A stretch of DNA of 63,983 bases, counting the filler, from Hausera hauseri (taxonomy: Eukaryota): NCBI GenBank assembly GCA_046269625.1. It is 12 parts of 12 records of this genome, joined end to end, with 100 filler letters (N's around TTAATTAATTAA, not from the genome) between each part and the next. Parts side by side here need not be neighbours in the genome. Positions count along the whole stretch, not along the records: positions 60,032 to 63,983 come from JBJURY010862742.1; 11 more parts are not named here. One strand, given 5' to 3'. Position numbers and translations under genes: made by a program. The notes under the pieces were generated by a model. The model saw only the letters and a list, made by a program, of their open reading frames with translations, was not told where the DNA came from and did no database searches. Each line of letters begins with the position of its first letter. Positions within the stretch are counted from its first letter, which is position 1. This document shows positions 12,757 through 63,983 of the stretch, piece by piece.

Positions 12757-14216
12757 TAAACTTCAATTTGCCAAAATCCTTTACGTAAATCTAATGTGGT
12801 GAACAACATTTTGTCTTTTAAATTATTCAGTATTTTATCGATCCTAGGTAACGGATAAGTGTTGTCCACTGTTACTTCATACAAGGCGCGGTAATCTAAA
12901 CACATCCTGATAGATCCATCTTTCTTTTGTACCATTACAATTGGGGCTGCCCATGGAGAATTACTTGGTCGAAATATGTCGTGCTGTTTCATCTCAGCTA
13001 TTATTTCTTTTGTCCTTTCTCTTTTATCATAATTAAGCCTATATTGTCTCTTCTTAATGGGAGTCTCCATTCCTTGTTTTAATTTAATTTCATGCTTGAT
13101 GACTGGTATTACTCCCATATCATATTCATCCACTGCGAATACATTCTTACATTGCTGTAATATTTTTATTATGCCTTCTTTTTCTGCATCTGTCAGTGAG
13201 CTCTCTTTACCAAACAAATCATAGTCATTCTAGTTGATAGGGGTTTTCGTAAGTTTTATAGTTTTATTATCTTTATTGAGATGGGTTTTTAATCTAATCA
13301 TTGGCTCGTCCTCGAACCGTATTCCACATTCTGCTTGTGGTTTTTGACGTTGTTTTTCTACGAATTCGGATAATTCTTGTACAGTGGAGATAATAGCTTC
13401 TATTGCCTTATTACCTACATCTTTTGTAATATATATGTAGGCAATTCTTGTGCCTTTCCTCAATAATTTTGGTTTATTTGAAACAGTAGCTATTCGAGAA
13501 ATTACTTGTTGTTCTCGAATATTATCGATCGCATGAGCAATCCATAATTAACTTTTATCCATAAAGTTTACATTTGGTTCAATGTATACATCTCCTTCCT
13601 CTCGACCTTCTACTAAAGCTTTAAACACAACTTCTGTCCTAGCTGGTATTAGTACATATTCTTTGATAGATACCGTATCCTTTTTCTCTTTCTTAATTTT
13701 TCGGTATGGTTGAATTTGTTGGGTTTCTAAATTTATACACATATTTTTTAATTTTGCTAACGCCTTACATTCAAGTATAGCTTCAGCTACTAATTCGTCG
13801 GCTATTCCAAATTCCTGTTCGAATTTTTGATTAAGTACTTTCGTTTCACATTTAATTAAGTCTTTTACCTGCACTTTAGTTCCAAATGCTCCAATATTCG
13901 TAATATCTTCTGTGGGTTTTTGTAATTTCTTTTTTAATTGTTTGGGCAACTGTTTCCGCAAAATCATTGAGGCCGATGCTCCTGTGTCAATTATTGCGGT
14001 GATAGGATATCCATCTATCCATATTACTGTGCTTGATATTACTTTACCTCCATCTATACTGGTTATCAATGCCTGTTTTGGAGCGGATGGATAGAACATG
14101 AGCTTCAAATGCTTTGAGTCATAATTGTCTATACCACTTGAATAATGTATATCTATATATTCATTAGGAGACATAAAGTGTTGCTGTTTTAATTGGTACT
14201 CATTCCACCTTCTCAT
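12757..14216 (-). mobile_element. Ty3/Gypsy aspartic protease - linker - reverse transcriptase N-terminal part (pseudogenised)
   Basis: AIIDTGASAS protease motif; RT motifs SPWAAPIVMVQKKDGSIRMCLDYRAL, YPLPRID, LDLRKGFWQI. ORFs starting at 14216, 13463 and 13217 share one frame, split by single stops. Confidence 0.93.
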
Positions 14217-14399
14217 CTGAGGAATATCTGATATTAAAGTCCTTCGCTTCTTACTTAGAGCAGTAATTAAACTCCATATCCTTCTAGTGTTTTCGGTTGG
14301 TTTAGGTATTTTCTCCTTTATCTTCTTTGGTTGGAATTTGTTTTGATCGTTACTATTATTATCGTCATCATTCTTGTTTTTGTTTTTCTGTTTTCATTC

Positions 14400-16240
14400 A
14401 GCGTCCTTTTTAATCAAAAAGCAACTAGCTACGGATGGAATTAGTGCACAAATAATTTTTCATGTACACTCAACAGCTTGTTTAATGCTCTAACCTTTGG
14501 TTATCATAGTCAAAATTGCTTTATAAAGGCGAAAATATAATAAAATCCCAGACATCCTGAATTAAATTGGCCAAACCACATATACCATCCCCATGCGGTC
14601 GCAAATATATCCTTAGCTATTTTCTAAGCATAGTCCGGTCCTATCAAATTTTCCCTGTTAGCTTTCCCGATGTGATCAGCTAACACTCTCATTGCAATCT
14701 CTGTTAGAACTTTTTGTCTATGTTGAGGGAACATCATCATTCTTCTATGGTTTTTCATATCTTGCTCGGAATACACACCCATCTTTACTAAGTCTATCAA
14801 TGGCTTATACGTTTGTTCGGTTTTGAAATTGATTAAACTAATCCTCCGAGGTGGAGTAATCTGATCCTTCTGCGGCACCCTTATCCATAAGTTATCGCTT
14901 AGTCGATATGCTGGCGACATAGTATATGTACAATTTGGCGTACATATGGTTTTTCTGCCGGATCTAATAATATCCGGGTGATTAATTGCAAGAAACGTGG
15001 TTTTTCCTTGTACCAGATAGGTAACTCCATGGTACAGTCGGTTGTTGGTCTGAGTTTGACAGCTACTTTTGTACAATCGAAAGTTACTAGCGTCTCACCC
15101 ATTGTTTGAGCAAATTTCCATTCTGCATGGGGAGACTCGGCTGGATCTTTTATTATTCCGTCCGTTATCGCAGATAGATATATTCGGTTTCTAATTATCT
15201 CTCTGTTCAATTTACAATCATTTAATATTATTTCTCGATACATAGCATAAATATTTTCTTGTTGGAAGTGATAAATAAAATCAATCTTATTATCGAAATA
15301 GAGATGAGGCTTCACTTCCGATTTATCAATCTTCCTTTTAACTTTTGTTATTTCTGTTGTGGATAAAAATGTCCCTTTATAATTTTTTCGAAATATTGTG
15401 TGGTCGCATCTTCTAGTGTCACTTTCTAATTAAAATCTCATTCCGTCTTGAGGATTTGCGGAATATACCATGGTAGGAGTCTCAATCATATCCGATACTC
15501 GGTCTAGTTTACTCTTAGATATTTCTTCTTTATACATTCGTCCTTTTGTTTCATTGAACTTTCCTGTTTTTAATAAAGCTAATTGACACTGATCCCTATT
15601 GACTTCATATGACATAATTGATTCACCAGTGTCACATTTTTTATTATAATAATCACATTCCGGGAACGTCATCATCTTTCCTGAAGACAGCTCAAAGAGG
15701 GCATCGTATTCTCTCAACTCAACTTGGTAATCTTCAATAGCCACTATATTATCTAAAATTTCGCCATTTATATTGTAAGACTCACCCTTACAATATCCCG
15801 TCTTATCAACTGTTTCAGCCACGAAAATTCTTTTATTGATAGTTTTTCCTTTCTGAGCTTTCAATCTAATATTGCCAATATTAATCTGTTTTGTCACAAA
15901 AGCCTCTATGCACATTCGTTTACTTATAGGAAGTGGTTCGAATGGAGTAGTTGGTTCAACTATTGCTGAGTTTCGGTACCAATATCCGAAAATGAAGTGA
16001 AAGTATTTCTTTCAAACAAAGCATTCTTTTACCTTAGTTTTCACAAACTCTGACTGTTGATAAACGTAGTACTGTTTTTCCTATATAGTAGTTAATGAGG
16101 CTGGATTGGCAAAAGGACATTGTTCTAAATCTAATAAGGAATATATTGGACCTTCATTGGCTTGGCTGCAATCATAAGCAATAATTGAAAGTGCTTCTGG
16201 CATCAGGCTAAACAAAAGAAGTATGGGTATTACTTTGGTT
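14400..16240 (-). pseudogene. Chuvirus/Monjiviricetes-like class III fusion glycoprotein (env-like), embedded in the Gypsy polyprotein
   Basis: Signal peptide VIPILLLFSLMPEALS then IIAYDC..YSLLDLEQC; GYCKG; ECDYYNKKCDTG; HLYFDNKIDFI...MYREIILNDCKLNR; GETLVTFDCTKVAVKLRPTTDCTMELPI; GVYSEQDM..RMMMFPQHR; C-terminal W/G-rich hydrophobic segments. Several stops and two frameshifts. Confidence 0.85.
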
Positions 16241-16698
16241 AGCTATGATAAGTCGAAATCCGGTTGTTGGTTTTGTTGTCTCTCTGATTGCTGAGGTGGA
16301 AGATATTCCATTCGTTGCTGTGTAGTTGGTGTCGATTCATGTATTGTTTTATGGACCAGGCTACTAATCCATCCACCTCTGCACTTTATCCATCCCTCGA
16401 CATTATCCTTTAATGCTCTTGTGGCAATTTCTATATTTCACTGTATTTCCTCCTGGTTCGGATTTACACCGTTCATTACCATTATTGCTGTCACAATTTT
16501 ATTTCGGTACATACCAGTTCCCATCATTCTTGAAAGAATATCCCTCTCCTGTATTTCATTTATCCTCTCGTCTGTAGGGATATCCGCAAATTGTTCACTA
16601 ATCTTTGCAATTTCATTCCTTATAGCATGCATTAGCGAATCCGGTATTTGTAAATTAGTATTAAACTCAACGAATACATTATGCACTCTTGCTAACAA
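16241..16698 (-). pseudogene. Unassigned helical plus Q/P-rich polyprotein segment, in frame upstream of the glycoprotein signal peptide
   Basis: Same frame as the glycoprotein N-terminus, with two in-frame stops; truncated at about 16700. Confidence 0.55.
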
Positions 16699-16699
16699 G

Positions 16700-17410
16700 G
16701 TTCAAAGAGATCAGACTATTGCTCAAGCCTTTGTCGAAGAAATTGTTTTTAATTATGGAGCACCGACTAAATTATTGACGGACCAAGCACCAAACTTCAC
16801 AGGAGAAATTATGGCGGAAATATTAAAAAAATTTCAAATACCACAGTTCAAAACTACTCCGTACCATCCTCAAACGAACATAACAGTAGAAAGATTTAAC
16901 GGAATATTAACTAATATGTTAGCGACCATGGTCAATGAACGACAAGACGATTGGGACGAATATATTAAACCATGTTTATTTGCAATAAGAAATACAATTC
17001 ACCCCGCAACCAAAGAGACACCCTTTTATTTAATGTACCTTAGAGATGCCCATATGCCAATTGATTTGGACTTTAAAATGCCCGTCTCCCATTTAAAAGA
17101 CATGGAATACAAAGAATTATTAGAAGAAAAATTAGGATATGTATGGAATTTAGCCTCACGTCATATAAAGATATGTCAAAAAGAGTATAAAGAACGCTGT
17201 GACGAAAAAGCTAAACCACATGACTTTAAACCTGGGGACAAAGTCATGTTGCATACATCCTTGAGTAAAAAGGAAAATACATCAAAATTAGACAGACCAT
17301 ACAAATGTCCATACATGGTTCAAAAAGTAGACGAAACTAACATCTACTTAAATAAAAATAAAAGAAATAAAATCGACCCCATAAAAGTCCATATGAACAG
17401 ATGTAAACCA
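16700..17410 (+). mobile_element. Ty3/Gypsy integrase core (N-truncated) plus GPY/F-like region
   Basis: TIAQAFVEEIVFNYGAPTKLLTDQAPNF...TTPYHPQTN..VERFN...DWDEY...TPFYLM...FKPGDKVML...KLDRPYKCPY...VHMNRCKP. Confidence 0.93.
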
Positions 17411-17439
17411 GCACCCGTGGAGTCAAAAATAAGGAATGA

Positions 17440-18600
17440 AAACCTCGGTCCATTACTAATAGAAACATTTGTAATATTAACTTTAGTGACTAGTATATCA
17501 GCCGAATCCTTGGCTGTAAATTACAAAGCCGTACAAGTTGGGAAATACCCTTGCATAAAAATCGCGGCTAATCGGAATTTAACAACAGATGAATATATAC
17601 ATATATTCATATCAGAATTACCTATAGTGGAAAAAGCAACGCCAGAAAACTGCGATTTGTACTATAATTATTCAATACACATTTGTTATTGGCTTTAATT
17701 CGGAGAAATGTATAGGATCGAATATGCAATTGGAAAGAGTGATCACAGTTACAGAACATATTTCTCATTCCCTGGTACTACCCATTATTTCCATCGATCC
17801 TATTTTCTTATTTCGTTTTACACTAATGTCATGAAAAATGGACCTTGTGAAACAGCAGAACCCGACATTACAATCACAAAATATATCAAATTTAAATATG
17901 CAATATTAGATGGAATCAACAACATATATTATAAACCAACTTATCAGAATCCTTACTAATCTTGTCCTATTGTTTTTGATAAGGAGTACGCAATATATTA
18001 TTGGACCGCGTATAATGGTTATACATTGTCAAAAACAGCAGATGGTCCGGAGACAATTGCGAAGTCCCTGATAAGGACAACAGAAAAAATAATTATTTTG
18101 GTAACACAACTGAGTAGTTCAAGAACACTACAAAGAATAGTAACTAGTCCAGCAATGGAACCAAAGAAAGCTATTAAGGAATTAGACATAATTATCCAAC
18201 AAACAACGCATTCATTAGTTATTACAGTGACAGATTTAAAGACTACGAAAATAAAGTTTGAATGCTATTTTAATCACAGGGTGGTCGGTGAAGGAATTTT
18301 AACTCCGGAGGAACCAACCTCAGCTTGCATATCTTTAAAAGAAAACACAAGCTATAAAGTTATTATAATAGAATTAAATGAAGAGGGTCAAAATATTCAA
18401 ACTATTAATCGAATAGAAAAGACATTAAAACAAGTGGCTATGACAAATATGAAGGCCATAAAAACAACTAGACCAGATTATGAGAACAACTCAAACTAAT
18501 ATATACAAATAATGATTGTATTATGTGTATTTTTAATACTAATAGTTATATTGTAACTCTTAACAATTTATTGTTCTAAAATAAAACGCAGCCAACGTAG
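17440..18600 (+). pseudogene. Type-I membrane protein (signal peptide, beta-rich/FN3-like ectodomain, TM) in frame after integrase
   Basis: LLIETFVILTLVTSISA signal-like segment; ORFs 16421, 17708 and 18026 share one frame; SLKENTSYKVIIIELNEEG resembles the FN3 LxPxTxYxVxV strand; TM IMIVLCVFLILIVIL*LLTIY followed by basic KIKRSQRR. Confidence 0.65.
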
Positions 18601-18608
18601 GACAAAAA

Positions 18609-19850
18609 ATGTTAAATGAATTAAAACTAATAAGGGAGGACGCCGAAAATGAACCAATAAAGAGAAAAGATGCGTATTACATTAAAAGCCTAAGGCAGGT
18701 TGAAAGACTTGCCGATCAAAAGCGACAAATTCGATCGCCTAAGGATATAACTATATGTCTGTGCACAACTATACAAGATAAGGCCTCTGAGTTCTTGGCG
18801 ACCTATCAAAAGATTAGACAATCAAAATATAAAAACATTTCCATTCTTCAAACCTCTCGGCTAATATTATATTTCTTTGTAGTCCAAGAAGGTTCAGAGC
18901 AAGCCCAAAGACAGAAATCGTTCTACCACAATATTACGGCCAATTCAACGGCAACCATGCATAAAGATTATTCATACTTCGGCAAAGCTTCACGCATACA
19001 AAACAATTTAAAATGTCACTTAGTAACCCAAAGGTGTGGTCTTATTATCAAATTGCAAAGCCGATCGGCGAACTTAACAGATTTAATTGATATTTCTGGG
19101 CGAACCAGATCTGTCTATATTTCAGTAGCAAGAGAGGCCGTTCAACTTAAAAGCAGATTCTTGTCAAATAATATAACCGATACCGTAGAACTTTTGGCAT
19201 TTACGACAATTCACCTTCATCAACAGTTCTACAAAAATGCCGCGATTATTATACGAACTTATACTGGATCATCACCAATAATATATATCGAGGTAACGAG
19301 AAAAGATGTACATAAAGTACAATACGACATGCCTACTTATGAAACACCTATATCAAAACGGTTTAAATTAGAGACAGGTATATCATTCTTTAGAAGTTCT
19401 CAATTTACTAAGCAAGATGTCATGATAGTAGCAATTAATTTAGCTTACACGATGACTCCAATTCGGAATAAAGAAACTACTCCAGTTGAAATCACTATAA
19501 AAACATTGAAGGTGATATTATTTTGGATCAAATTATTTGTCCACGAGATAAAGATGATAACTACAACACATATCACTGGCCTTAAGGAAATGGATTTAAT
19601 AGGTCAAATGGATACTAATCAAGTTGAATCCCAAATGAGGAAAATATTAATCGGAAAACCAATAATCGGAATGTACGTATTTAAACATTCAAATACATCA
19701 TATCTTGGGACAATATCCTTGACCTACGGGATCTATTTTATCATAAAAAAATTAAATTCCAAAATGAAGAAACTACAAAACAAATGTTTACAAGATTTAA
19801 TGAAGGTATTTAGCCGCAGAGAACTTCAGAAAAAGCCTCAACGATATTAA
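18609..19850 (+). pseudogene. Cytoplasmic accessory region ending in a degenerate REX4/ISG20-like DEDDh exonuclease fold (about 19425-19690)
   Basis: IVAINLAY...PVEITIK/(shifted frame)NIEGDIILDQIICPR/...THITGLKEMDLIGQMDTNQVESQMRKILIGKPIIG follows the REX4 pattern; the ExoI acidic residues are absent. Confidence 0.6.
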
Positions 19851-20164
19851 AAATATACAATTCAGTTCCCCGATATAAAAATAAAATCGAAATGTTGAAA
19901 CCACCGTTAGAAACCATGGATACATCAGAAACTACGTTTAATGACCGAGTCTAATCTAAATCCATGAATTCTTTATCCGAAAATAAAAGTCAAGCGACTG
20001 TCTAGACGCCCAAGAATCTTGAACAAATGACAGTACCCATTCAAACATCATCATCCAAAGTTTCNNNNNNNNNNNNNNNNNNNNNNNNNNNNNNNNNNNN
20101 NNNNNNNNTTAATTAATTAANNNNNNNNNNNNNNNNNNNNNNNNNNNNNNNNNNNNNNNNNNNN

Positions 20165-35400: not shown

Positions 35401-36214
35401 TTCTTGCGGATCCACTCTGGGAGCTCTATGTAGGAGCTACCTCTCATCGGGCTGTACTTATGTACATGAATCATCAATCGCGTGACTGATGAGAGAGCCC
35501 AGCTGCTCCCCTTATACTGGCTCTCCTCACCTTCATGGATAAGTTTTGTATATTCCTCATTGATCCATTCTTGAATGTTGGTAGACTGCGTTATCGGCCT
35601 ATTCTTCGTCTTGAATGTCCGATGTGATATTTCGAAATCGACATTACTGTATGCTGCCTCTAACTTAAGGTTGACTTGAAGGGCCTTGAGTTCCACCAAA
35701 ATGTCCTGGATGATACCCATACTTTCATTTGATGCAGAGTCCAGGAACTCATTGACGGTTGAATGACCTGTTGCGTCAATTATATATTTGCAGACCTTAC
35801 CTCCGAGTGCAGATGAATCAACTGACCGCTGCCTCTGACTTTTAGGTGCGGCACTAGTGGCTGCCGCAGCACCTCGGAAGTCAGCATGGTGGACTGTATG
35901 GTCTGTGTATAACTGTGAGTATTCAGCGCCGGTCACAGTCTCGCATACTGGGCAGATGTAATAGTCCAATCCATAATATTTTTGCCCATAATATTGTCGC
36001 ATTACTCTGTGGCAATCCTCCGAATTATGTGCTGCTGATGTGCAGTAGGTGTATGTTGGACACCTTTGAGTATTCGGTTTTTCAGCATTATGCACAGATG
36101 GCATATTTGAACGGAATATCTACTTCTTGGATTTTGATGCAAAATATTCCAGATGGTGGGCATGATCTTCTTGAAATTCTTCATGCGTTCTGCATATCGT
36201 CTCACATCTGGGGC
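32488..36214 (-). mobile_element. Polinton/adintovirus-like protein-primed family B DNA polymerase (broken into several ORFs) with an endonuclease VII-like Zn domain
   Basis: GSSYIELP, IYCDFEA (ExoI), RDHCHVTGKYRGAACNNCN, FIDSYRFM, YLDANNLYGWA, NNIVFGKTMEN, YMDTDS, DDKR. Confidence 0.93.
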
Positions 36215-49700: not shown

Positions 49701-50153
49701 ATGCACTTATAGTGTGATGCGCTTATTAGGTGATGCGATTATTAGGTGATGCACTTATTAGGTCATGTGCTTATTAGTTCATGTGCTTCTTAGGTGCGGC
49801 ACTTATTATTTGATGCACTTGTTAGATGATGCACTAGTTAGGTGATGGACTTATTTCTCGAATCATATATTAGGTGATGCGCTTAATATGTGATGCACTT
49901 ATTAGCTGATGCACTTATTAGATGATGCGCTTATTAGGCGTTGCAGTTATTATGTGAAGCATTTATTACGTAATGGACTTATTAGGTGATACACTTCTTA
50001 GGTAAAGCGATTATTAGGTGATGGACATATTAGGTGATGCGCTTATTATGTGACTCCCTTATTGGGTGATGGAATTATTAGGTGATGCGCTTATTAGGTG
50101 ATTCGCTTATTAGATGATGCGCTTATTAGGTGATGGATTTATTAAGTGATGCA
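40786..50153 (+). repeat. 16-bp satellite array, consensus TTATTAGGTGATGCRC, roughly 580 units, with higher-order variant blocks
   Basis: The whole contig is tandem degenerate 16-mers; no ORFs in any frame. Confidence 0.98.
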
Positions 50154-50255
50154 NNNNNNNNNNNNNNNNNNNNNNNNNNNNNNNNNNNNNNNNNNNNTTA
50201 ATTAATTAANNNNNNNNNNNNNNNNNNNNNNNNNNNNNNNNNNNNNNNNNNNNGT

Positions 50256-50351
50256 TTAACCAACGATCTGGGACAAAAGATCCCATTTATGAGCGGAACA
50301 TCGACGGTGACGTTACGTTTTAGGACGAAGGGACAAGTCGATTTCCAGTAA
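50256..50351 (+). pseudogene. Polinton minor capsid (penton) C-terminus
   Basis: LTNDLGQKIPFMSGTSTVTLRFR* matches the typical penton end, and it lies just upstream of the core/MCP genes. Confidence 0.7.
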
Positions 50352-50364
50352 GGTTGGTCAGACA

Positions 50365-50810
50365 TACCCCTTTGCATCGAAACGCCGAGGCATACAACGA
50401 CTTTTACCACAGCCAAGCCAGAGATGGGATTCCCGTCTTTGTCAGTGGTAGACATCAGAGAAGGAGAGGGATTTGAAGTTTCTTTAGCTCTGGGGTCGAA
50501 TGGTTCTCCCATGGCTAAAGACTGAAGGCAAAGCCCTGCTCAGGGAAGGAATTGGTACGAGCTTGCAAGTCTCCAATGACGCTTTAGCCGATAGAAATGT
50601 AGGTGAAGCCATTAGAGACCACGCCAGACAGGCGGGTCAGAAACTGCTGCAAGGTGCGGTGAGCCACATGGCAGGCAACCAATCGGGTAGCGGTACCTGC
50701 CCCACCAGGCGAGCCCTTTAGCAAAGGAATAAAACCGACGGTCGCTTCGAGTATTTCTCATAACAAGTGCAAGGAAAAGCGAGTCAGGCTGTATTCAGAC
50801 ATCCTTGATT
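50365..50810 (+). pseudogene. Polinton/adintovirus core (pVII/pX-like) protein, frameshifted
   Basis: YNDFYHSQARDGIPVFVSGRHQRRRGI*SFF...PWLKTEGKALLREGIGTSLQVSNDAL..RNV.EA...QSGSG. Confidence 0.65.
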
Positions 50811-50814
50811 AATA

Positions 50815-52072
50815 ATGTCTCTCCTTCACCCCGGCTCGTGCGAGTGCCTTCACTCTGAATTGTATTTGTTTAGTGTTCCTCCGACGCAAACGGCGGTAGA
50901 GGAAGGACAGTTTGTAGAAATTTACCTCGCTTCTCTCGCATCTGGGGCGCCCATAGAATTTGTAATATCCGGAAACAGCGAAGAGTATCTAGATTTGTTT
51001 AATAATTTTTGTTACACGTGAAAGCCAAAGTCGTTTTAGTCAATGGCAACAACATACCCAAAGTTTATTTTCTCAAGTGGACTTTGCCCTGAGCGATAGG
51101 TTGATCACGCTTAGTGAAAACACGTATCCTTACAGATCTTACCTCGAATCGATCTTAAATTATGGTCAGGAAGCAAAAAAGGGGTCACCAAACGGCAGCT
51201 CTATACTGCAACGACACACCAACATTTTTCGATGATGCAAAAGGCGAATTTAACTTTGGAATAAAAATGCGTTGGGTGTTGGCTGGAGGTAGTCATGAAA
51301 TGGATATGATGGAAAAGTTGCACTCTGACATTTTCGTGCAAGACCGATATTTGCTGAACAGTGTAGATGTAAAAATAAAGCTCACACCGGCCAAGGACGC
51401 GTTCAGCCTTATAGCCGACGATCCAGCAGAAGATTATAAATCAATTATAACTTTAGCCGTCCTGGTAGTCAGGAAAGCCAATTTAAATCCAGCCATCTCT
51501 CTGGCACACGAAAAGGCCTTAACTACAGCGAACGCGAAATACCAATCAAACGTATCTCACTATAGACATTGTCTATCCCTAAAGGGATGTTGTCGCACAT
51601 TCAAGACAATTTTTTTCCTAAGTAAAACACCCACACGTATTGTAGTCGGAATAGTTAGTTCCACAGCCTTTAATAACCAGTTCAACTTCCAACACTTTGG
51701 CCTGACATATCTTAATGTAACCGTTGATGGTCGAACAGCCACAGGCAAACCGTTACCAAAAAACTTTGAACACAATCAATATGCCAGAGCCTTTTTGGAA
51801 CTAATCTAGCGATGAACCTCATAGGCATAACACTGGGTGGGATGTACAGTACAGAGATTTTAAGAATGGTTACACACTCTACGCCTTTGACTTAACACTC
51901 AGCCTTTTTATACGGTGACCAGTTTGAACTCGCGAAAAACGGACCCCTTTCATTAGAGTTTAAATTTTCCTCCATAACGCCAGAACCTATACAAGTCATA
52001 GTGTACGCTGAGCAAGATTCCATAATTGAAATTTCCAAGACTCGCCAAGTGTTAATGAATTACGCAGCTTGA
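50815..52072 (+). pseudogene. Polinton/adintovirus major capsid protein (double jelly-roll), frameshifted
   Basis: MSLLHPGSCECLHSELYLFSVPPTQTAVE...PIEFVISG..EYLDL; YPYRSYLESILNYG; LHSDIFVQDRYLLNSVDVKIKL; PTRIVVG; FNFQHF; GYTLYAFDLT; VIVYAE..SIIEI. Confidence 0.9.
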
Positions 52073-52076
52073 AAAA

Positions 52077-52550
52077 ATGAATACTGAAGAAATAATAACA
52101 TTTTACAGTCTGACATTTTCGTTGTCATAAGTATTAGCGCGAGATCAACTACCAGAGTTTTTTGATAGAACCAAGCCTGCTGCCTTTGTCATAAACACAG
52201 ATCCCAGTTATCTAGCAGGCAGTCATTGGGTTGCCTTGTATTACAACGGTGATGGAACATTTGAATACTTTGACTCGTTTGGTTTACCGCCAATGCACAA
52301 GGACATTACAATTTTCATAAAAATGAACTCTGACAGACTGGTCATCTATAATGTACAGCCTCTACAAAGCATTACGAGTAACACGTGTGGTCTCTATGCT
52401 ATTTATTTCATCCTGATTAAATGTCGAGGGAGAAGTATGCAATGCGCCCTTATGCCGTTCACAATACACAGACAGCCCACGAATGACATGACTGTTTGGT
52501 GCTTCGTTCGACCTTGGCTGCGCAAAAATAAATTTGATTTTGTTCTATAA
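52077..52550 (+). pseudogene. Adenain-like cysteine maturation protease
   Basis: VINTDPSYLAGSHWVALY...EYFDSFGLPP...QPLQSITSNTCGLYAIYF (H-D-Q-C catalytic set); 5' part disrupted. Confidence 0.9.
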
Positions 52551-52635
52551 ATAACTATGACGTTATAAAACCGGGTTGAACCGGTTATAATGGTATATAA
52601 GAAGCTGCGTTTTCGCTGTAGCCAACACACTGAAA

Positions 52636-53121
52636 ATGTATACGAAGATAGGCGAGCATTTGTATATGACAACCGATGCGGTGTTTGTGAAACCGCTAGG
52701 TGACATGAAACTAGTGACCGTTTCATTTTATAGAAATAAGACCATGGTGCATGTTCGCCGATACTTTGGAGAAATTTACATCAAATACCCGACGAAAACA
52801 GTCATCTCGTTGAATCGCGAAGACTTTGAAAAGCTGCTCGCGATGCAGAATGACATTTTAGCTGCTTTTGATAAGCTAAACACGGCACCAAAAGATGTAT
52901 CAGAAAGAGAACCGTTAACAGACATTGACTCAAATGTACCAAATTTTCTCTCATTCTACAATCAAGACACGCAACCTGACTTTTTACAGACCTATGTGCC
53001 CACGTATGATGCTTGTATTCAAGCAACAACACCAGTTTCTGATGTTCAATATAAAAAACAATTAAAAGAGCCACGCAAGCCGTCTCTGAAGAAATTCAAA
53101 CGCGTGAAAAATTTGCCTTAA
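52636..53121 (+). CDS. PC4/Sub1-like ssDNA-binding domain protein of the Polinton
   Basis: KPLGDMKLVTVSFYRNKTMVHVRRYF...YPTKTVISLNREDFEKL follows the PC4 pattern; ORF intact, with a basic C-terminus. Confidence 0.75.
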   Translation: MYTKIGEHLYMTTDAVFVKPLGDMKLVTVSFYRNKTMVHVRRYFGEIYIKYPTKTVISLNREDFEKLLAMQNDILAAFDKLNTAPKDVSEREPLTDIDSNVPNFLSFYNQDTQPDFLQTYVPTYDACIQATTPVSDVQYKKQLKEPRKPSLKKFKRVKNLP

Positions 53122-54340
53122 TAAATGTTGAAAACCCAAAACGTTGTTATTTCAGTATGTCTGTGTATGGCTGTATGTGTGAGTATGTCTGTGTGTGTGA
53201 TATTAGTCACATGATATATAGCCAGCTGACAACCAGAGATTCTACACGACAACAAGAATTGGACCTTTTTCTCTATATTCATCGTTGGAAACAACTATTT
53301 GCCACAAGACAAAACTTTCTCTCTATGAATACCCACAGCTAACAAGATGATGAATAAATGCTCTAAACAACGACCTCTACCACGGTGATGAGAGTAAACA
53401 ACAGACAAACGTTCACAGATGAAAACAAAGTGCAGAAGATCACTACTTGTTATTTTCCTCTCTTTTTTCTTCACTCTTAACTAAAGCAACAGAGGTGAAA
53501 ACTAAAACATACATAACTTAACAAATTGACAAATACAATATTCCGTTATTGATCCTACACATAATTAAAACACCACCTGCGGTTCAGAGTCAGAATGAAT
53601 CTAGATTGCCGTGCACGACAAAAAAAATAATCAGCATGCTGGTCTTTCTCGCTGGCTTTGTAGCAGATGGTGCATTTATTAACTTGCCAGGTCTTTGTTT
53701 CAACGGCGTGTATAGCCAAAATCCTCTCTATATAAACCAGCCGATTGGTTAGTTTTACTTCACTGTGTTCCAAACCTGTGTGACAGATCCACTGCCTTCA
53801 AGAAACATTTGGAAAATTTCGGAAATAATTTACTGTATGGTAAGTATAACAATATCTTTTAGACTCGAAAGTGTATATACCTGTGTGCAGTTCAAACATT
53901 AGTGTTATAATTTAGTTCTTTATTAGGCCTTTTAAAGACTGATGTTCACCATCTTTCTTTGATATCAGTAACTGTTGAGTCACGTGCTTAATGGAGGCTA
54001 TTAGTGAAAAGTATTTATTGTTTTACTTAGTGACCCTTACAAATACTAATTGAATGTGAGGTCAAAGGCACCAACCACTCGGTCATCATCGAGGGCTATT
54101 GCGCCTGGTACTCAGACCCCTGTGGAGCATAGGTTGTCACACATACTTTGTACCTTAGGGACAAAGGGAACATGGTGCTGTCAGCCAAGTGGCTGGTATT
54201 CGAAATATAAAAAATAAAAACAATCGTTAAGTAACAGACTATAACTAAATCAACATACAAAGCACATCTTGTAACTAACTTATTCCCTGCTTGATTTCCC
54301 CGATTTAGTTTAGTTTAGATGCCTGTGTTAAAACAGTGTT

Positions 54341-55294
54341 TTGGAATTAATATTGACATATTCAAGTTTGATGATGCGCGAGTCCTTTCCCCAAAACTTG
54401 GATTCAGGTGGTAGTGACAGGTTTACCGATACGTTATGTCTTTTACTTTTTAAAAGTCATTTTATGTACATAGTTGACATAGATAGAGCAGGGCATGCCT
54501 TCTCGTGTTCTAAATGCGGCAAGTTGTGGAAAGTACATCGGTCCATGACAGAACGTGTAAAGGTGGTGCTTCAAAAGAAGTATTTAAAAATTCACCATCA
54601 AACGAAATAGTACCTTTACGCGTCTAGCCACACAAAAGTACAAATTTCTAGATATATGCAATTACTTAGCCATGGGGTTTAGTTATTCCAAATATCTAGC
54701 CGCGTATAAGGTGGAAGAAACTAAAGGTTTCTTCTGTTATGAATATATAGATAGTTTAGCCAAGTTGGATGAAACTAACCTGCCTCCACACTCCATCTTC
54801 CATTCGACGCTTAAAAACTGTAACATTTCCGAAAAGGACTACGAATATTGTCAACGAGTATGGAAAACAGAGGGGATGCACACCGATTTCCTCATCTGGT
54901 ACAACAACCAAGATGTAGTCCCCTTTATAACGGCATTGGATAGACAAGTCGCGTTTTATTCCGAGTTGGGGGTAGATATTTTTAAGCAGGCGATTAGTGT
55001 CCGCTGGGTGAGCTTAAATTATCTTTTTAAAACCCTGCCCTCCGACGTTAGTTTTTCCTTGTTTTCCAAACGTCAGCAAGATCTCCACCAGACCCTCAGG
55101 GACAATATAATCGGGGGACCTAGCATCATGTTCCATCGAGAGCATACATCTGGCAAGACGCGTATTAGGTGTGATAAATTAGTTAAGAGTATTAAGGGTT
55201 ATGACGCAAATGCTCTTTATCTCTGGGCTCTAATGCAAGATATGCCGACCGACTTTGCCATTGTAAGAACTTGTGAAGATGGGTTTAAGAAACA
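54341..55294 (+). mobile_element. Second, different Polinton pPolB (internally deleted, truncated)
   Basis: HFMYIVDID...FSCSKCGKLW; FLDICNYLA.GFSYSKYLAAY...KGFFCYEY...YNNQDVVPF...IIGGPSIMFHR...GYDANALYLWALMQDMPT. Confidence 0.9.
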
Positions 55295-55394: not shown

Positions 55395-55540
55395 GCTGCA
55401 TACAATGGCTCCCCAATTTGAGCAAAATCTTTGATAAACCTTCTATAATAATTTGCTAAGCCTAAGAATAATCGTAACTGGGTGACACATCTTGGAGGGG
55501 GTGCTTCTCGAATTTTGCCAATCTTGTCATTTGTTAACAC
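55395..55540 (-). mobile_element. Ty3/Gypsy RT thumb/connection fragment
   Basis: KIGKIREAPPPRCVTQLRLFLGLANYYRRFIKDFAQIGEPLY. Confidence 0.88.
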
Positions 55541-58112
55541 AGGGATTGAACGAAGTCGTTCAACCTTTAGTACTTGTCAACATATAAAGGTCAGCCTAAT
55601 TGGTGTAATTGGTGAGTTCGCTTACCTCTTTTAGTAATTGGGTGAATCTGTTTATCTCATTTATGTTTATCAACTTCCTCATACTCTCAGCCTGTTCTAT
55701 CACATGTTCTTTTCTGTACATAGTTACTCCTTTATATCTTCCTTCTTTATTTATAGTTCTCAACCATTCCCTTTAGGTAACGACAATAGCCAAGTCCTTA
55801 ATTTCTATACTATGACCGATTGTTAATCTCAGTAACTCATCTATATAGAGGGAAAATTTAACTCTAGACTGTTTTGGAGTAATTATTCGTTCGAGTTCCT
55901 GGATGTGGTTAGCCTTTAATAAACTATCAAAGGTTCGAATTATCCCGCCAATTAACAACATTAAGTCGCCAAATTTCCTGTTAACACAGGTAGAGATTAT
56001 AGCGATTAACAACATCCAATTATCAGATTTATTTAGGTTCAGAGGTACATATGAAGTCACTCTATAAAACATACAAATTTCATACATGCATAACTTTAAA
56101 TAATGAATATTAGATAATAAGAACCAAGTATCCAATCCTATATCAGAAAATAGTCGCGTTAGGTTCAAAAATTTATATATCTTTTAGTATTATTATATTA
56201 CATAATTTACTAAGTTAAAACCTTTTGACTGTTAACCAAATAAATAGAGAACAATCTACCACTAGTATTATCGTAACAATCAAAAGTCTTCTGATTCAAC
56301 CATGTTATTTAATGATCAGGGGTATATGCGATAAGGAAATAATAATGTCTAAACCAGGAAATATGTTCGAAATAGTAGAACAGACAGAAAACAACTAAAA
56401 TCAAGATAATCGACCCAGACTCCAAAATTGATTCATTCATTCTCAATTTCAATCTACAAGATTTTTACATAACGGAACATCATTTAAAACAAACGGTTAA
56501 TTAAATCATAAACTCAACAACCATTTATTCCATTGTCAAGTATGTTCTAATCTCCCTTTCCAACGGAATGAATTAAGCCGTCATCCGATTTATTTCGTAC
56601 CGCAGTATCAAAATCGATAGGTTTATTTTCTTACTTTGTCACAACCAGAACCAATCCTTAATGACAACCTCCGCATCAGCGACATATATCTAATGATTCA
56701 TTTTGTTGAAATTCTAAGTACAGTTTAGTATCTCACGAAATCATTCAGGATTTGTTAATAAATTTAGTTCAAATAATTTCTCATCATACCTTCATAGTCG
56801 TCGTAATGTTATCTGACTCAGGTTAAATCGAAATCTCGTGAATTACCCTAATACGACAAAACACAACACAGATAATATAATTAACGTCTACCCGCTAGGA
56901 CTCTTGCTTGGATTACCTTCGATCAATATACAAATATTCTGTACATAAAATAATCAGATATCTGAATCCGTGAATCATCGTAAAACGTTGTTTCCTATGC
57001 AGGTTAATCCACCGCCGTTCTGGCATATCGACGACTTTGCATTTTCCTTAATCTCTCCTCGTTCATCTCGAAGACCCACTTCATCGTTGCATATCATTTG
57101 TTTCGTATCCGACCACAAGTTGTCATTACGTCCGTTATAACCAGACCATTTAATACAGTTTATGAAATTCAAAACTTTATTACATAACAAAAATAACAAA
57201 ACCATAATTATAACATCGATCATGGGTTATTGATATATTGATACCATAAAACATCTAAATAAACATATCTTACCAATACTCGCTTTGGCCACATTTCTAC
57301 TACCATTACTAAGTAAGGGAATCGCATTTCCTTGAGCTTCAGCATCAAAAGCCATTTCCGGATTCGGAAAATTAACATGATCTATTATTGCAGTCACAGA
57401 CTCCGTTCCAGCATCCATCCTATCGTTGATTATTGGCATATCAGGGTTCATTTAATTATACTGTTTCACAGAGAATATACAATTCTCTCTCTCTTATTAC
57501 AACATGAACAATGGTTACGTAAACTTTCCAGAAAAAACGTCTGGTCCGAGAGTAATGCTAAAATTGCAGTAGTTGAAAAAATTTTTTTTGTTTTTTTTTG
57601 TTTCTTAACTTCGTTAATTTATATACTTGTCTCGTATATGCAAAATTGGTTACCACTTGAATTTTCAAATTATTCAAATGAATTTTCTTATTCGCCATAC
57701 GATTGCAAAATTGGTTACCAGCTGGATTTTTAAATCATTTAAATAAATTTTGTTATTTACTGTGTGTTAATAGGCGATCTACTGTATGTTACCAGGTCAA
57801 TTTTCATAATTGACTATTTGAATTTTTATAATCGATTACTGTTTCTGGCCGAAGAAAATTTTGATGTAATATTCATTTTAAAATCTCCTATTGATTCTAG
57901 CATCAATCGATCAATACCCAATCCACCTCTGGCTAACAATACACATATACATAGCAGTGGTAATGAGGATACCCATCACTTGGGTTACACAGTAAATGAA
58001 GTAAGAAAGAAAACAAAATAAATAAATAAAATGTATTTACTAAATGTCTACTAAACAACAAAACATCCACAGAATGATAGTGTTGGTAATGTTGTGTCGC
58101 AGGATGGTGAAA

Positions 58113-59931
58113 TCAACAATGGTACATCATAATAAAGTTTGCTGGAAGTGTTATTCCATTATTCTGCATCGGACTGAAACTTATGAATCTAATGACCCTA
58201 GTGGCCCTCAACATTTCTCCCCCTTTGAAAAGGATTCGGTCCTCCGGATCACACTGGGTACTGGCATCGATAAAACTGAGATTTCTGGGTCGAATTGTTA
58301 ACGTTGAATCATTCACTGGGTTCATCCAATGGCATAATTGCTGGGTATGGTTATCGTAGACGTAGGAGAAGTGGTAATATTCTTATGGTTGGCGGCAGTA
58401 GGGACATGACATACCGTTCTGAAATGTCATTTGGAGTGCATTGTTTGGATCAATGGATTGAAGGAATTGATAACGGAGTTTATTGAAATATGTTGCACAC
58501 AAGGTGTGGTTACATTGGAATTGGACTATTGTTATTCTCTCGGTTAGACAAATTGTACATTCGTAGGTTGGAAGTTGATCGTAAAAGAGAATTTGCAATG
58601 TTGCCCAAAGATTTGGTGGGGCTAAATTGGAAATAAGGTCGATTCGGCATTTACTGAATACGGGGAACCAATCCTGTTGTAATGATATTGGTAATGGAGG
58701 ATTATGAGATATTGTTGGTGTAGGCGTTATCGAAGGTGCAAGTACTAGTAATTCAGATAACGGTCTAATGACTCTTTCAGGATTGTAACGTGGATGGGGG
58801 ATTCAAGATGGCTGGTGTAGAAGAGACATTATGTTTATATGGGGTAAAGGTACTTGGTATACAAAAGATGGTGGTTGGTTTATTGTAGATGGGCTAAAAC
58901 AATTGATAGGGAATTCAATTCGAACTGAGGATTGCTGTTCTAATCGAAAGTATCTTGTGGGTAATAGTTGAGGAATTGGGGTGTTAGTAATAGTAAGTAA
59001 GGCTCGACTCGGGTGATGGAAGTAAGAAGATATGTATTCAGGGCAAAAATAACATACTGCAAATTAAACATCGATGGTGGGATTCCAACTGGTAACAATG
59101 AGAGCAGTATTCTGCATTACAGCAACTAAATTGGTAATCTGTTTTATTAGGTTTATTGCATAAACAACAAGTATGTAATTGAAAATAAAGAATAGAAAAG
59201 GGTGTTGACACATCCCATGTATAATAATATGTAACGTGATCAGAAGGTTCAATGATTTCGAGAGTTTTGGCGTGAAGTAAGGTTTGATCGGCATCAGATG
59301 GGAATGCGTTATGCTGGATGCAATATTTTATCTCATACTTGCAGATTTGACAATAAGGCATGGGGTTTGCCTGGGATTTTGCTCTATCTATGCAGTATGA
59401 ACAGAACATATGCAAACATAGTGTTAATCTGTATACGACATTGAGGATCGCTCGACATTCCATACATTCTGGGAAATCTAAAAATAAGCATAATTAATTG
59501 AGATTTAATTCGATTGTATTAAGATCTATACAATTATCAGTGTCTTCAATATATAATGAGTTGGATAGGTAGTTGTACAATTGTCTAAGTAAATGGGCTT
59601 GTACTAATGGTAATGTATATGTAGGAAGTATAGTGGTTCGTAGTAATCGTTTGCTTAGACGGATTATAGGTACGGGGTCTTTTGAGAAATTTATAGAGAT
59701 AGGATGGTGGTAAAAATCGGAGAAACCATTGGTATCACTAATAGGCAATTTTAATGAACATAAGAGTAGATCAAGTTGTGATGTTATTATAAATTTGTGC
59801 TGCAATATATCTTGTATAAGGGGTACGAAGTCTTCATTATCGATTTTATACAAGGTAAGGTCATCAGTTATGCCTGCAAAAAGTGTTCTCCAATCGATAA
59901 CTTTATGTCTGGGATACATTTGTTGCTGTAA
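58113..59931 (-). pseudogene. Decayed long reading frame with three RING-like zinc fingers and Pro-rich linkers
   Basis: CMEC...CLHMFCSYC...CQIC; CCLC...CCNAEYCSHC...CLIC; CTIC...CNHTLC...CPYCRQP. ORFs starting at 59919 and 59463 share a frame; no introns apparent. Confidence 0.7.
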
Positions 59932-60569
59932 NNNNNNNNNNNNNNNNNNNNNNNNNNNNNNNNNNNNNNNNNNNNTTAATTAATTAANNNNNNNNNNNNN
60001 NNNNNNNNNNNNNNNNNNNNNNNNNNNNNNNACTTACAATCGTCTGATCGTGAGGCGCTTAGAATATGAAATGCTCAACTGCTTTTGGGCTATCTGCCGA
60101 AACAATTTCCACCACCAGTTGATTTGCTTAAGTGGGATTTTCACCGGTTTGAAATTTTCCGACTGAATTTTCCCCATGTTTCCATGGTCTGAACGAGTTG
60201 ACATTGTGTGCCTTCGATTCCTCGACATTGGTTTGACATGTCCACCAAAGATTGCAAAATTCGTAACTCGTGTCGCGTTTCTCATAAAAATTTCCTGTTT
60301 TTCTTCTTGCTTCTAGTGCCGTCCAGTAAAATATTTAACTCTCGCCGCGCTAAAAAATTTTTCTCCCCTCATTGAGCTCTTTCGATTTCCGTCGGTGACA
60401 TGTGCGACATGTGACATGTGCTTTCAATCCTGGGGGGGGTCTTCCGATCTCGAGACATGAAATGCTCAGAATTGCGAGATAGGTGGGGAAATTATATAGC
60501 GAAGCTCGAAAAATGCTTTTGAAAAAATTTTCCGACGGTGGTTGAGAGCCCACACTTCTACTTACTGAC

Positions 60570-60670
60570 ACGGGCCATATAAAGTCGTGGATGTACGCCA
60601 ACAAACTATTTTCGTCCAGAAAGGACCGAACAAATATGAAGCTGTGTCCCTACAAAGAGTAACGAAAGCA
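60570..60670 (+). mobile_element. Ty3/Gypsy integrase C-terminal GPY/F region
   Basis: GPYKVVDVRQQTIFVQKGPNKYEAVSLQRVTKA, in frame with ORF 60587..61132. Confidence 0.65.
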
Positions 60671-60779
60671 TCAATATCATACAATGATTTCATAAGACAG
60701 GTAGAGTTAGAGTCATCAGATAAAGTAGAACCAAAAATAGCGGCTCTATTTCAGAGGCAAAACATGGATAACTTTAAAT

Positions 60780-62420
60780 TTATGAGTTACCGAGTTTACC
60801 CCATATGGGGTAGATACTTTGGCATGGTATTCTTTATTTTATTGACGTTTTTCTCACAACTTGCAGCTGCTTTATACAACTTTACTAAATTGGTTATATA
60901 CACAACCATTTCTCATATTGATAAAAGCGAACCTATTATTTGCTTCCGAACATCCGTACGGGTATACTCACATTACAAAGTGAAGTTTGCATTCACATCT
61001 TCAAATAAAATATCAACCAGTTGCACTATCCCGGATAAACATCATCAGACTTGTTGCCAACTAAATTATGATACTTCTTATACTTCTTATGTATTATTGA
61101 AATCTTTAGATCAGGACGGATATAGTATTTAATGGAACCCGAATATTAATGTTAATATCCCTCTTCAGGATATCGTGGATATTTTAGACAAACCAAAATC
61201 AGATATGGTACTCTATGATGAGTTCACTGCTTAATTCTTAAAAAATAATACTGCGATATCAGAGATAAATTCGGTCCGTCCTTGCATCAATTTCCGAACT
61301 ATACAACCTTTGCACCTTAGATACAAAATTCATATATGGTATGATGCTCACCCCAGATATGTGCATCAACCACATTTCTGTTATCTCAATAGAGCACATC
61401 CTCTAGTATGCTATGCTCTCCATACTAATATTCGGTACATAATCCGTTTTGATATGTACTTCAGCAAAGGCACTTTTCATCTAATACAATCCTCGCGATT
61501 ACCAATCTTTATCATTATTAAAAATACGCAGATAAAATCTATTTTAAATATTATCCATGTTCCAAAAATTTCTACACGTACAGCCACCCACAAGAGTAGA
61601 GGAGAGATAGGAATAACCAGAGAAGTAACCAAAGCAACCACAAGAGTAGCAGAAGTAATCAAACCGCTGACGAAGACAATAAAGAAAGACAAGCATATTT
61701 TCAAAGGAAGATTTATGAAAAATTTCCCAATCGAATTTAAATTGAAACCTTATACAAATAGAATCGAGATAACCATTTCTCAAAAAATAAAATGAAAAAA
61801 TTCGGATAAAATGTACAAGTATCTACTAAAAAGTCGAAATCAAGTTTTCCAAAAATAAACGCAATTTTTGTGAAGGCCTAACACTGGATACAAATAATTT
61901 TGTCAAAATATACACGAAAGATAATTCAAAATTAGTGACGATAAAAGCGTCACCCTTAGCAGATCAATATCAACACATAAGATATAACGAAGAAGATGGA
62001 AGAATGAAAACAACCACAACTTTACCGGACATTACAGAATCGTATTTACTTAAATATTAGTGGAAAATTGGGTAGTGTTAGGAATCGGTACAATATGTCT
62101 AATCATAGCAAAATATAATCATAAATGAAGTGTAAAAGAACAAAAAATAATGAATCCCATTACTACGAAATAATACGAAACAACAGAAATTATAAGATAG
62201 TGGAGTTAAACAATATTGAACCACAGAATATTACAAAAGACATACCACTGACTCTTAATGAAATTCAGAGAAGAGAGAAATATACACAAACCACATTATG
62301 TTTTATACCTCTCTTACTAATCAGATTAAATAAAGACAGCACATACAAAATTTAACAACATATTGGTACATAATCCTTATGATTGGTGGACCAATAATAA
62401 TGAGTTATTTTAGTAAGAAT
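60780..62420 (+). pseudogene. Post-integrase signal peptide / ectodomain / TM protein, homologous in layout to 17440-18600
   Basis: YFGMVFFILLTFFSQLAAA signal-like segment; ORFs 60587 and 61310 share a frame; NNRNYKIVELNNIEPQNI vs ENTSYKVIIIELNEEGQNI; hydrophobic YWYIILMIGGPIIMSYF then basic residues. Confidence 0.5.
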
Positions 62421-63520
62421 ATCAAATCCAATCAAATAAGAAAACGAATCAAATTTAACTTGTGTGTTAACACGAATAGATATAAATTAGATATAATTCA
62501 ACAATTTTTCAGTTTAATCGCTGACAATATGTCAAGAAAGCAGAATAATGCTCCCGAAATGGGAAGCGGGAACTCATCAAGAAAAAGAATCAACGCTCCT
62601 AAAACAGGAAGCTCAAACTCCAGGCGAGTTATCGCAAACGCTACCGAAACGGGAAGCACTCAGGATTTCGGACAAAGAAGAGGGACAAATAAAGAAAAAT
62701 ATGACAAAGAAGGAATTAGAAAACTTTCCGTCATTCGCCAAACTATGTCGTACGCATTTTACGACAAAATAATCGCGCATCTCGATCAGGATAATCAATT
62801 TATTGACGAAGTCTCAAAAATCCCAAATTATTTCAAATATGGAGAAACGAGGAACCGATGCTTACTTCCATTTAAATTATATCACTTTGATGCTATTCTC
62901 CCTCTCACACAATGGATGAACGAGAATAAAGGAATAACAGCTCACATAGCATTAGGCAGAGTTCAGATAAATTTTAGAAAATTAGATGGCAAGGAAAATC
63001 GAATAGAGAAAATTGACCATCAAGAATCGTTACAGATCAACTATGCAATAGACCCAAAAGGAATCACAACTGTTTCAAGAGAAATGCTAACCATTGGCCC
63101 TATTGAGTATTATATTGCAGAAAGTGTATACTCAATGCCAGAGCTAATAAAATTTAAAAGTGAACCAAATGAAGAAGAATTACGAAGAGGATCCAATATT
63201 TTATTAACTGACAGAGCAAAAAGCATCAGGTACTTAGCGACTTCCTTTGCATATGGAAAACGATCAAATGGAACCCAGATTCCATTGCCTATTGAAATCA
63301 TTATTGCGGAATCAAATGGTGACATTATTTTTTCTGAAATAATATCCCCAAGAAGAGCAATCCATAACTTGAATAGAAACCGGCACAAGATAGATTGGAA
63401 TCAAATTCAAACCGGAATGGATTGACCAAAACTTAAAGCTGAAGTTACAAAATTTACTTTGGGATATAAAATTGTGGCGTTAGAAGTGCACAAGTCGTTT
63501 AATGCGCTTTGCATACTGAT
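62379..63520 (+). pseudogene. Cytoplasmic accessory region with degenerate REX4/ISG20-like DEDDh exonuclease fold (about 63231-63510)
   Basis: YLATSFAYG...PIEIIIAESNGDIIFSEIISPRRAIHNLNRNRHKIDWNQIQTGMD*PKLKAEVTKFTLGYKIVAL; homologous to 19425-19690. Confidence 0.6.
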
Positions 63521-63983
63521 TATTCGAGCTTGCGCAGTTGTGGATCCCATGAAGAATGTATAGAAAACTTATAATCAACAGATAACTAATATATGTCAAA
63601 TAATAGCTATGCTGAAACTTCTCCAATTTCCGAGTACTACGGAAGGAAGACTCCAGTTAACTATAGAAGCTCACAAGAAAACTACCGATCACTATGTATG
63701 GACACCAACTGAACCCCAAGGAAACATACTTGATTATGGAGACTTATTGAATCAAAAAACGTCCATTTGATGTTTAGGCCACGTAGTAAAAGAAACAAAA
63801 TTCAAGAACATTCCAATGAAGGACAAGATCGAGCCTGGTGAATTTGATGTATCTAACTGTCAAATATCAGAAGGGGAAACAGATGATTAAATGAGAGTGA
63901 ACAAAAGAAAATATTGATAAAAAGGAAATGCGACTGGACAACGCAAGTTCAGATATCTACTCAAACCGAAAGTTTAGAAAAGA

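Follow-up and report, generated by a model that had tools for sequence, protein, structure and literature searches.

The closest described parallels to the locus reported here come from bdelloid rotifers, where the Juno and Vesta long terminal repeat (LTR) retrotransposons and the Terminons are described as bearing an additional open reading frame (ORF3) for a DEDDy-type exonuclease with its invariant residues intact (DEDD changed to DEED); the function of this protein is putative (PMC5408684). Inactive derivatives of the DEDD superfamily are represented by Maelstrom and EXD1, both reported to retain RNA binding (PMC5408684, PMC2628886). The Burro giant gypsy elements of planarians, according to their description, possess a mononegavirus-type env between gag and pol, as well as RING and other accessory domains (PMC6431247). 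Here we analyze a 63,983-nucleotide stretch of the genome of Hausera hauseri (GenBank assembly GCA_046269625.1; hereafter, the window), which carries a family of putative retroelement accessory ORFs whose C-terminal half derives from DEDDh exonucleases and appears to have lost the catalytic acids of the Exo I motif early in its history. An earlier, sequence-only reading of the window had proposed a catalytically dead REX4/ISG20-like fold conserved in two element copies. We refer to the site of that finding, on the last contig (60032-63983), as copy B, to the other copy, on contig 12757-20064, as copy A, and to a third family member, which had been overlooked, as copy C.

Similar to the rotifer ORF3, the window family places an exonuclease domain of the DnaQ-like 3'-5' kind in an additional ORF of its own, located after pol in what appear to be Ty3/Gypsy-like elements of an invertebrate. 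The two are set apart by description: the rotifer protein is characterized as an RNase D/mut-7-like DEDDy enzyme, whereas the window family matches the DEDDh type. It is also devoid of the acids, its ORF comes after one for a membrane protein, and the domain is preceded by an additional N-terminal region. In the Atlas feature comparison, DNA_pol_A_exo1 was confined to a single cluster, of which it made up an 11% minority. Among solved structures, the best matches belong to the ISG20/ISG20L2/REXO4 group (PDB 1WLJ and 7YW5; PF00929), with an alignment that spans strand beta-2 through the helix following beta-5; the members of this group are catalytically active enzymes of the cell and have a complete D-E-D-H-D set, most of which is missing from the window family (see below).

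The family is held together by a single bridging protein, P0002, an intact, stop-free, nameless singleton of 447 amino acids from ENA, which was the sole match of copy A among 1.84e9 representatives in an unfiltered search (E 2.7e-7). P0002 aligns with copy A over 276 columns with 27% identity (E 2e-14; z score 20, with none of 300 shuffles as high) and with copy B over 104 columns, corresponding to the first two-thirds of the finding, with 33% identity (E 4e-8; z 10.4, 0 of 300 shuffles); its overall identity to A and B is ~25-27%. The three sequences align loosely end to end, the N-terminal region being present in all of them and the C-terminal tail in B and P0002. A region of ~200 amino acids before the exonuclease-like domain is common to A (~18900-19330), B (~62740-63130) and the N-terminal half of P0002. 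A family profile built without copy B matched it with an hhalign E value of 5e-5, and copy B was the best non-self match among 1797 six-frame pieces of the window for a profile of P0002, A and C (E 0.0038). The sequence-only reading had regarded A and B as two copies of one element. They are located on separate contigs, their best BLASTP match has an E value of 0.68 (z 2.5, equalled by 7 of 300 shuffles), no same-sense tblastx link was found between them, and tblastx comparison of the flanks of A, B and C gave no link. Because A and B have no significant mutual similarity, they are not copies of one element; judged by their alignments, they are distant lineages of one family, joined via P0002. 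The family is real and rare. Word-seeded searches returned none of 3183 candidates with copy B, only the query itself among 363 candidates with the P0002 domain, and, with a two-member profile, none of 343 candidates, all of lengths 94-321; none of the 85 pattern matches in GTDB genomes was confirmed as a family member, and tblastn against phages and plasmids gave nothing or noise at E 0.8-7.

Sequence and profile comparisons demonstrate that this family derives from DEDDh exonucleases. Three of the four PDB matches of P0002 are DEDDh enzymes and fall on the same segment (ISG20L2, E 0.0026; PolC exonuclease, E 0.14; ISG20, E 0.14), the fourth being an unrelated protein with E 0.98. All three PDB matches of a three-member profile are to the same DEDDh proteins, ISG20L2, PolC exonuclease and ISG20 (best E 4.3e-4). 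The control profile comprised 14 active bacterial and phage DEDDh enzymes, all with D-E-D-H-D, specifically, E. coli DnaQ, 12 of 13 phage loci (the broken locus L082 was dropped) and one of 80 near-alike DnaQ loci. P0002 scored 13.9 bits against this profile, a value reached by none of 200 shuffles, and a four-member family profile aligned with it over 114 columns (probability 92.5, E 4.7e-7). Copy B alone gave a marginal 1.9 bits, equalled by 5 of 200 shuffles. On the exonuclease part, NCBIfam reported only PolC (E 0.015), and the Atlas features pointed to RNase_T in 23 of 30 matches for the copy A domain (top score 0.90) and in 29 of 30 for P0002 (0.91). The Pfam model RNase_T was matched by no family member, and the full sequences of A, B and P0002, as well as the domain pieces, matched zero Pfam families; copy B had no PDB sequence match, and a PDB search with copy C gave only two weak, unrelated ones. 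The DEDDh resemblance of the window ORFs exceeds chance, though only via the bridge P0002, and we infer that the family has an RNase H-like DEDDh fold, in which the order of elements would be beta1-beta2-beta3-alphaA-beta4-alphaB-beta5-alphaC. As for the REX4/ISG20 affinity proposed earlier, the DEDDh origin is borne out by the PDB, profile and Atlas comparisons and the best matches are indeed of the ISG20/REX4 type; the assignment to this subgroup rather than to DEDDh enzymes in general draws on the ranking of PDB matches and on eukaryotic Atlas clusters, and is suggested by an E value of 4.3e-4 against 0.26 for PolC. A match of the two-member profile to ribosomal uL24 (E 0.27) was taken as noise, because the tail of copy A is out of frame.

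In ISG20, a single change to alanine at D11, E13, D94, H149 or D154 is reported to strongly impair activity (PMC10085690). The motifs that the sequence-only reading had picked out are present on the plus strand, ATSFAY at 63237 in copy B and AINLAY at 19431 in copy A, each followed, after a helical segment, by G..I[IV][GA] (63462-63479 in B, 19653-19670 in A). Within the 12-residue window of the Exo I strand there is no Asp or Glu in A or B, and a single Asp, located past the motif, in P0002. The Asp-x-Glu found in all 14 control enzymes is replaced by S-x-A in B and by N-x-A in A and P0002, so that both Exo I acids are gone, as had been claimed for A and B, in all three members that reach this motif (the contig portion of copy C does not). 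The surrounding pattern is N-L-A-Y in A and P0002 and S-F-A-Y in B, with the Ala and Tyr invariant in all three. The Exo I register rests on spacing and pattern, because the local alignments stop short of the strand: the Glu of a downstream P-x-E aligns with ISG20 R27, which lies 16 residues past D11, and the distance back from it is 17 residues to the motif Ser in B, likewise 17 to the Asn in A, and 13 to the Asn in P0002. The absence of acids from the strand window is firmer than this register-based reading.

The other catalytic positions are less uniform. At Exo II, the Asp is absent from B in both registers and from A, which has no acid in the stretch compared, whereas P0002 has Thr315 by the ISG20 register and Asp314 by the DnaQ register, and copy C has an Asp nearby; since Asp314 aligns with the Exo II Asp of DnaQ in local profile alignments, this residue may remain in P0002. 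At Exo III, P0002 has Leu365 opposite the His and Leu370 opposite the Asp (in global mode, with low column confidence), and by eye copy C has Thr and Gln, with no His or Asp, while copy A has Gln and Lys in another frame, with a Glu one position off. Copy B lacks the Exo III segment, since 41 of the residues that separate strand beta-5 from the C-terminal RLQL motif in P0002 have no counterpart in it. In total, copy B keeps none of the five D-E-D-H-D residues and P0002 at most one. The earlier observation is confirmed in part, in that the motifs exist as described; both copies are pseudogenes, a point that the earlier reading did not make: the frame of copy B, open from 62334, meets a stop at 63423, within the finding, with further in-frame stops at 63561 and 63768, and in the stop-free ORF of copy A the homology shifts to another frame at ~19502-19580 and again from ~19700. 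The state of two pseudogenes by itself proves little about an ancestral loss. The inactivation was nevertheless probably ancestral, as the earlier reading had supposed on less evidence, because the intact P0002 retains at most one of the five catalytic residues and its motif is non-acidic as well. The P0002 frame extends over 447 residues free of stops, and its N-L-A-Y recurs in A in spite of an identity of 27%, for which a single early loss of the Exo I acids, followed by selection, is the best explanation that the three sequences suggest.

By analogy with known inactive DEDD proteins, we propose, as the likeliest reading and with a probability of about 0.5, that Ty3/Gypsy-like elements use the family as an accessory pseudonuclease, which would bind RNA or its 3' ends and would protect or chaperone the element RNA. 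In this scenario, the AT-rich genome of this animal would harbor large LTR retroelements of the Ty3/Gypsy-like type with an accessory ORF of ~450 amino acids near the 3' end, and a eukaryotic DEDDh 3'-5' exonuclease belonging to the REX4/ISG20 group would have been the source of the C-terminal half of this ORF. A single loss of the Exo I acids would have preceded the divergence of A, B and P0002 to ~25% identity, after which selection would have maintained the dead domain. It would keep the RNase H-like scaffold and could bind single-stranded RNA or RNA 3' ends without cleavage, as metazoan Maelstrom and EXD1 are reported to do; since the cutting residues are lost, the domain probably owes its retention to the binding of RNA or proteins and not to cleavage. 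The pseudonuclease might coat or chaperone the RNA of its own element, shielding it against host 3'-5' trimming and surveillance nucleases, and the window copies would be dead relics of such elements. The likeness to the MAEL domain and EXD1 lies in a DEDD-derived domain with lost catalytic acids; unlike the window family, these two are host piRNA factors.

Several observations weigh against this proposal. The family is known from four sequences in all, three of them broken or shortened, and P0002, known from its protein sequence alone, is a putative element-borne protein. The retroelement identity of copy B comes from gene order and from a putative integrase C-terminal motif, GPY-K-V-V, which was not confirmed by Pfam. 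Scored alone against the control profile, copy A was reached by 106 and copy C by 29 of 200 shuffles. Atlas scores of 0.90-0.91 are reached by 4-10% of shuffled proteins, for which reason we treat the Atlas result as corroboration, and the shared features number 157-167 of 256, fewer than the 170 that genuine members of a family typically have in common. AlphaFold models have low confidence (predicted local distance difference test, pLDDT, of 48.5, for a partly out-of-frame A sequence, and 36.8), and the Foldseek and VIA searches made with a low-confidence model weigh neither way. Finally, an Exo II acid may survive in P0002 and C.

An alternative use of a dead domain would be at the protein level, as a decoy or adaptor that mimics a host REX/ISG20-like or small-RNA trimming nuclease and titrates its partners or hands them over to the RING E3 ligases of the element for degradation, a counter-defence function. 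Two RING ORFs directly after copy C fit this idea, as do the host-meddling RING, BIR, BCL2 and MATH domains described for the planarian Burro elements (PMC6431247) and the reported dampening of innate signalling by the arenavirus exonuclease domain, ExoN (PMC7968707). However, no RING ORF follows A or B within their contigs, both of which are ended by contig ends, a mimic would be expected to resemble host enzymes far more closely than the very low identity seen here, and the arenavirus domain is catalytically active. We regard this role as unlikely. ExoN, part of the arenavirus nucleoprotein (NP), resembles the window family as a viral DEDDh domain (Atlas rank 6 for copy A, 0.87, a lead only), and differs in its activity, its zinc finger, its fusion to the NP core and its origin in an RNA virus rather than a retroelement. 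Still less probable is a nuclease with a switched active site acting by a non-DEDD mechanism, a change proposed for MAEL (PMC2628886). The Glu of P-x-E is invariant in all three members and the Asp of M/I-D in all four, but that Glu is also ordinary in the active bacterial enzymes of the control profile, and it is the only residue present of the MAEL set E-H-H-C-H-C. Membership in the Maelstrom family was itself rejected on the same grounds, with no C-H-C cluster and no PF13017 match in the window family, by comparison with the published description of MAEL (PMC2628886).

The stops, frame changes and deletion that fill A and B would also be expected if the captured host exonuclease were a neutral passenger whose residue losses reflect independent pseudogene decay, and the extra ORFs of rotifer elements are described as showing no clear departure from neutrality (PMC5408684). 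P0002 argues against this, as a stop-free protein of 447 amino acids that matches A in its dead motif, although the two are only 27% identical, is hardly expected without selection, and we consider decay of a passenger improbable. That the DEDDh likeness arose by chance in a protein of another fold appears highly improbable, given that four methods (PDB search, NCBIfam, control profile and Atlas) yield the same family on the same segment, and that the order of elements in the weak structural model (three strands, helices, strand, helices) fits the DnaQ topology.

The genomic context of the three copies is given in the table below. The window joins 12 short contigs by artificial linkers (N44-TTAATTAATTAA-N44, identical at all 11 junctions), and ORFs crossing a linker are artefacts; its GC (guanine plus cytosine) content is mostly 25-45%, and the content is largely decayed repeats. 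The Ty3/Gypsy features seen are an upstream integrase in copy A, with protease and reverse transcriptase (PR-RT) on the opposite strand, a polypurine-like tract in copy C and the putative GPY motif in copy B, and no LTR pair is visible in these contigs, which are fragments of 4-7 kb.

Features of the three family members and their surroundings in the window.
Feature	Position	Strand	Basis or remark
Monjiviricetes-type fusion glycoprotein (env-like), aspartic protease and reverse transcriptase, in this order	12757..16240	-	PF24664 E 9e-17, RVP 1e-7, RVT_1 2e-7
Integrase core and C-terminal part upstream of copy A	16700..17420	+	Pfam rve E 1.9e-4, below curated cut-off
Broken ORF upstream of copy A, signal-like N-terminus and hydrophobic C-terminus (by eye)	17438..18550	+	No Pfam or PDB match
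Copy A, a member of the accessory ORF family, partly out of frame	18609..19860	+	Homology to P0002
Copy A, Exo I strand	19419-19448	+	
Copy A, Exo III-like segment in another frame	19817-19858	+	By eye
Candidate polypurine tract (13-nt purine) followed by TG, candidate 3' LTR start	58212..58226	-	Weak: the window has three sites of this kind
Two RING-finger ORFs with a proline-rich spacer, directly downstream of copy C	58383..59493	-	Pfam E at best 0.004 and 8e-7, short of the curated cut-offs
Copy C, C-terminal two-thirds of the domain, stop-free, ended by contig end	59494..59931	-	P0002 tblastn match 59599-59913, E 7e-5
Possible integrase C-terminal remnant (presumed GPY-K-V-V)	60569..60718	+	Not confirmed by Pfam
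Broken ORF upstream of copy B, signal-like hydrophobic N-terminus and membrane-anchor-like C-terminus	60758..62149	+	No Pfam match
Copy B accessory ORF, decayed, ~450 codons	62529..63890	+	N-terminal region, DEDDh-derived domain, C-terminal tail common with P0002
DEDDh-derived domain of copy B, from strand beta-1 through beta-5, no Exo III segment after it	63225..63551	+	Profile and alignment
Exo I strand of copy B, IRYLATSFAY, free of Asp and Glu	63225..63254	+	Motif search
Copy B strand beta-4 with the Exo II position, where the expected Asp is replaced by Ser in the ISG20 register or by Lys in the DnaQ register	63468..63500	+	

The gene order in copy A is integrase, membrane ORF and accessory ORF, and by eye the copy B contig likewise has a membrane ORF followed by the accessory ORF. 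The two membrane ORFs have neither a Pfam match nor a convincing PDB match, and they are not similar to each other. Similar to Burro as described (PMC6431247), the copy A contig has a Monjiviricetes-type env directly upstream of PR-RT; the comparison is by description only, and the account consulted lists no exonuclease-like ORF for Burro. The env-PR-RT part of this contig (12757-16690, minus strand) stands back to back with 16700-20064 (plus strand), in which the integrase resumes mid-core, a layout that could have come about by inversion within a single element or by two elements lying next to each other. A further decayed gag-pol element at 27017-31337 (minus strand) has protease-, reverse transcriptase- and integrase-like ORFs by eye, and its integrase matches that of copy A with E 1e-13. 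At the far end of the copy C contig, at 55395-55600 (minus strand), there is a fragment resembling reverse transcriptase and RNase H, LRLFLGLANYYRRFI.

Elsewhere in the window, a 9.4-kb satellite of ~584 copies of a 16-nt unit occupies 40794-50153, and two regions resemble remnants of Polinton-like elements. The first of them (50254-55294), a Polinton/adintovirus-like remnant, contains an adenovirus-type protease (E 4e-7), a PC4-like ORF (E 3e-6) and an ORF resembling, by eye, a type B DNA polymerase fragment. The second (32688-36119) has an ORF of 830 amino acids with an endonuclease VII-like segment (E 2.5e-5) and type B polymerase motifs recognized by eye.

In the full-text literature searched (Repbase, GyDB, subscription journals and supplements were outside this scope), we found no inactive DEDDh ORF in LTR elements. 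To our knowledge, hardly any genes that counter silencing at the protein level have been described from animal retrotransposons. We consider the family to be of interest because its dead site seems old and conserved and because one intact protein can be assayed. It is conceivable, though in our view improbable, that an env-bearing clade of invertebrate retroelements encodes an ISG20/REX-derived pseudonuclease, in some lineages together with RING E3 ligases, that blocks host RNA 3'-end surveillance or small-RNA trimming; if this were true, such a counter-defence pseudonuclease would be the retroelement counterpart of Maelstrom-type domestication, turned against the host. The family would also widen the range of retroelement-captured exonucleases from active DEDDy to inactive DEDDh proteins. 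An old, conserved, element-borne pseudonuclease would be a concrete anti-silencing candidate, and the intact natural protein P0002 makes an assay possible.
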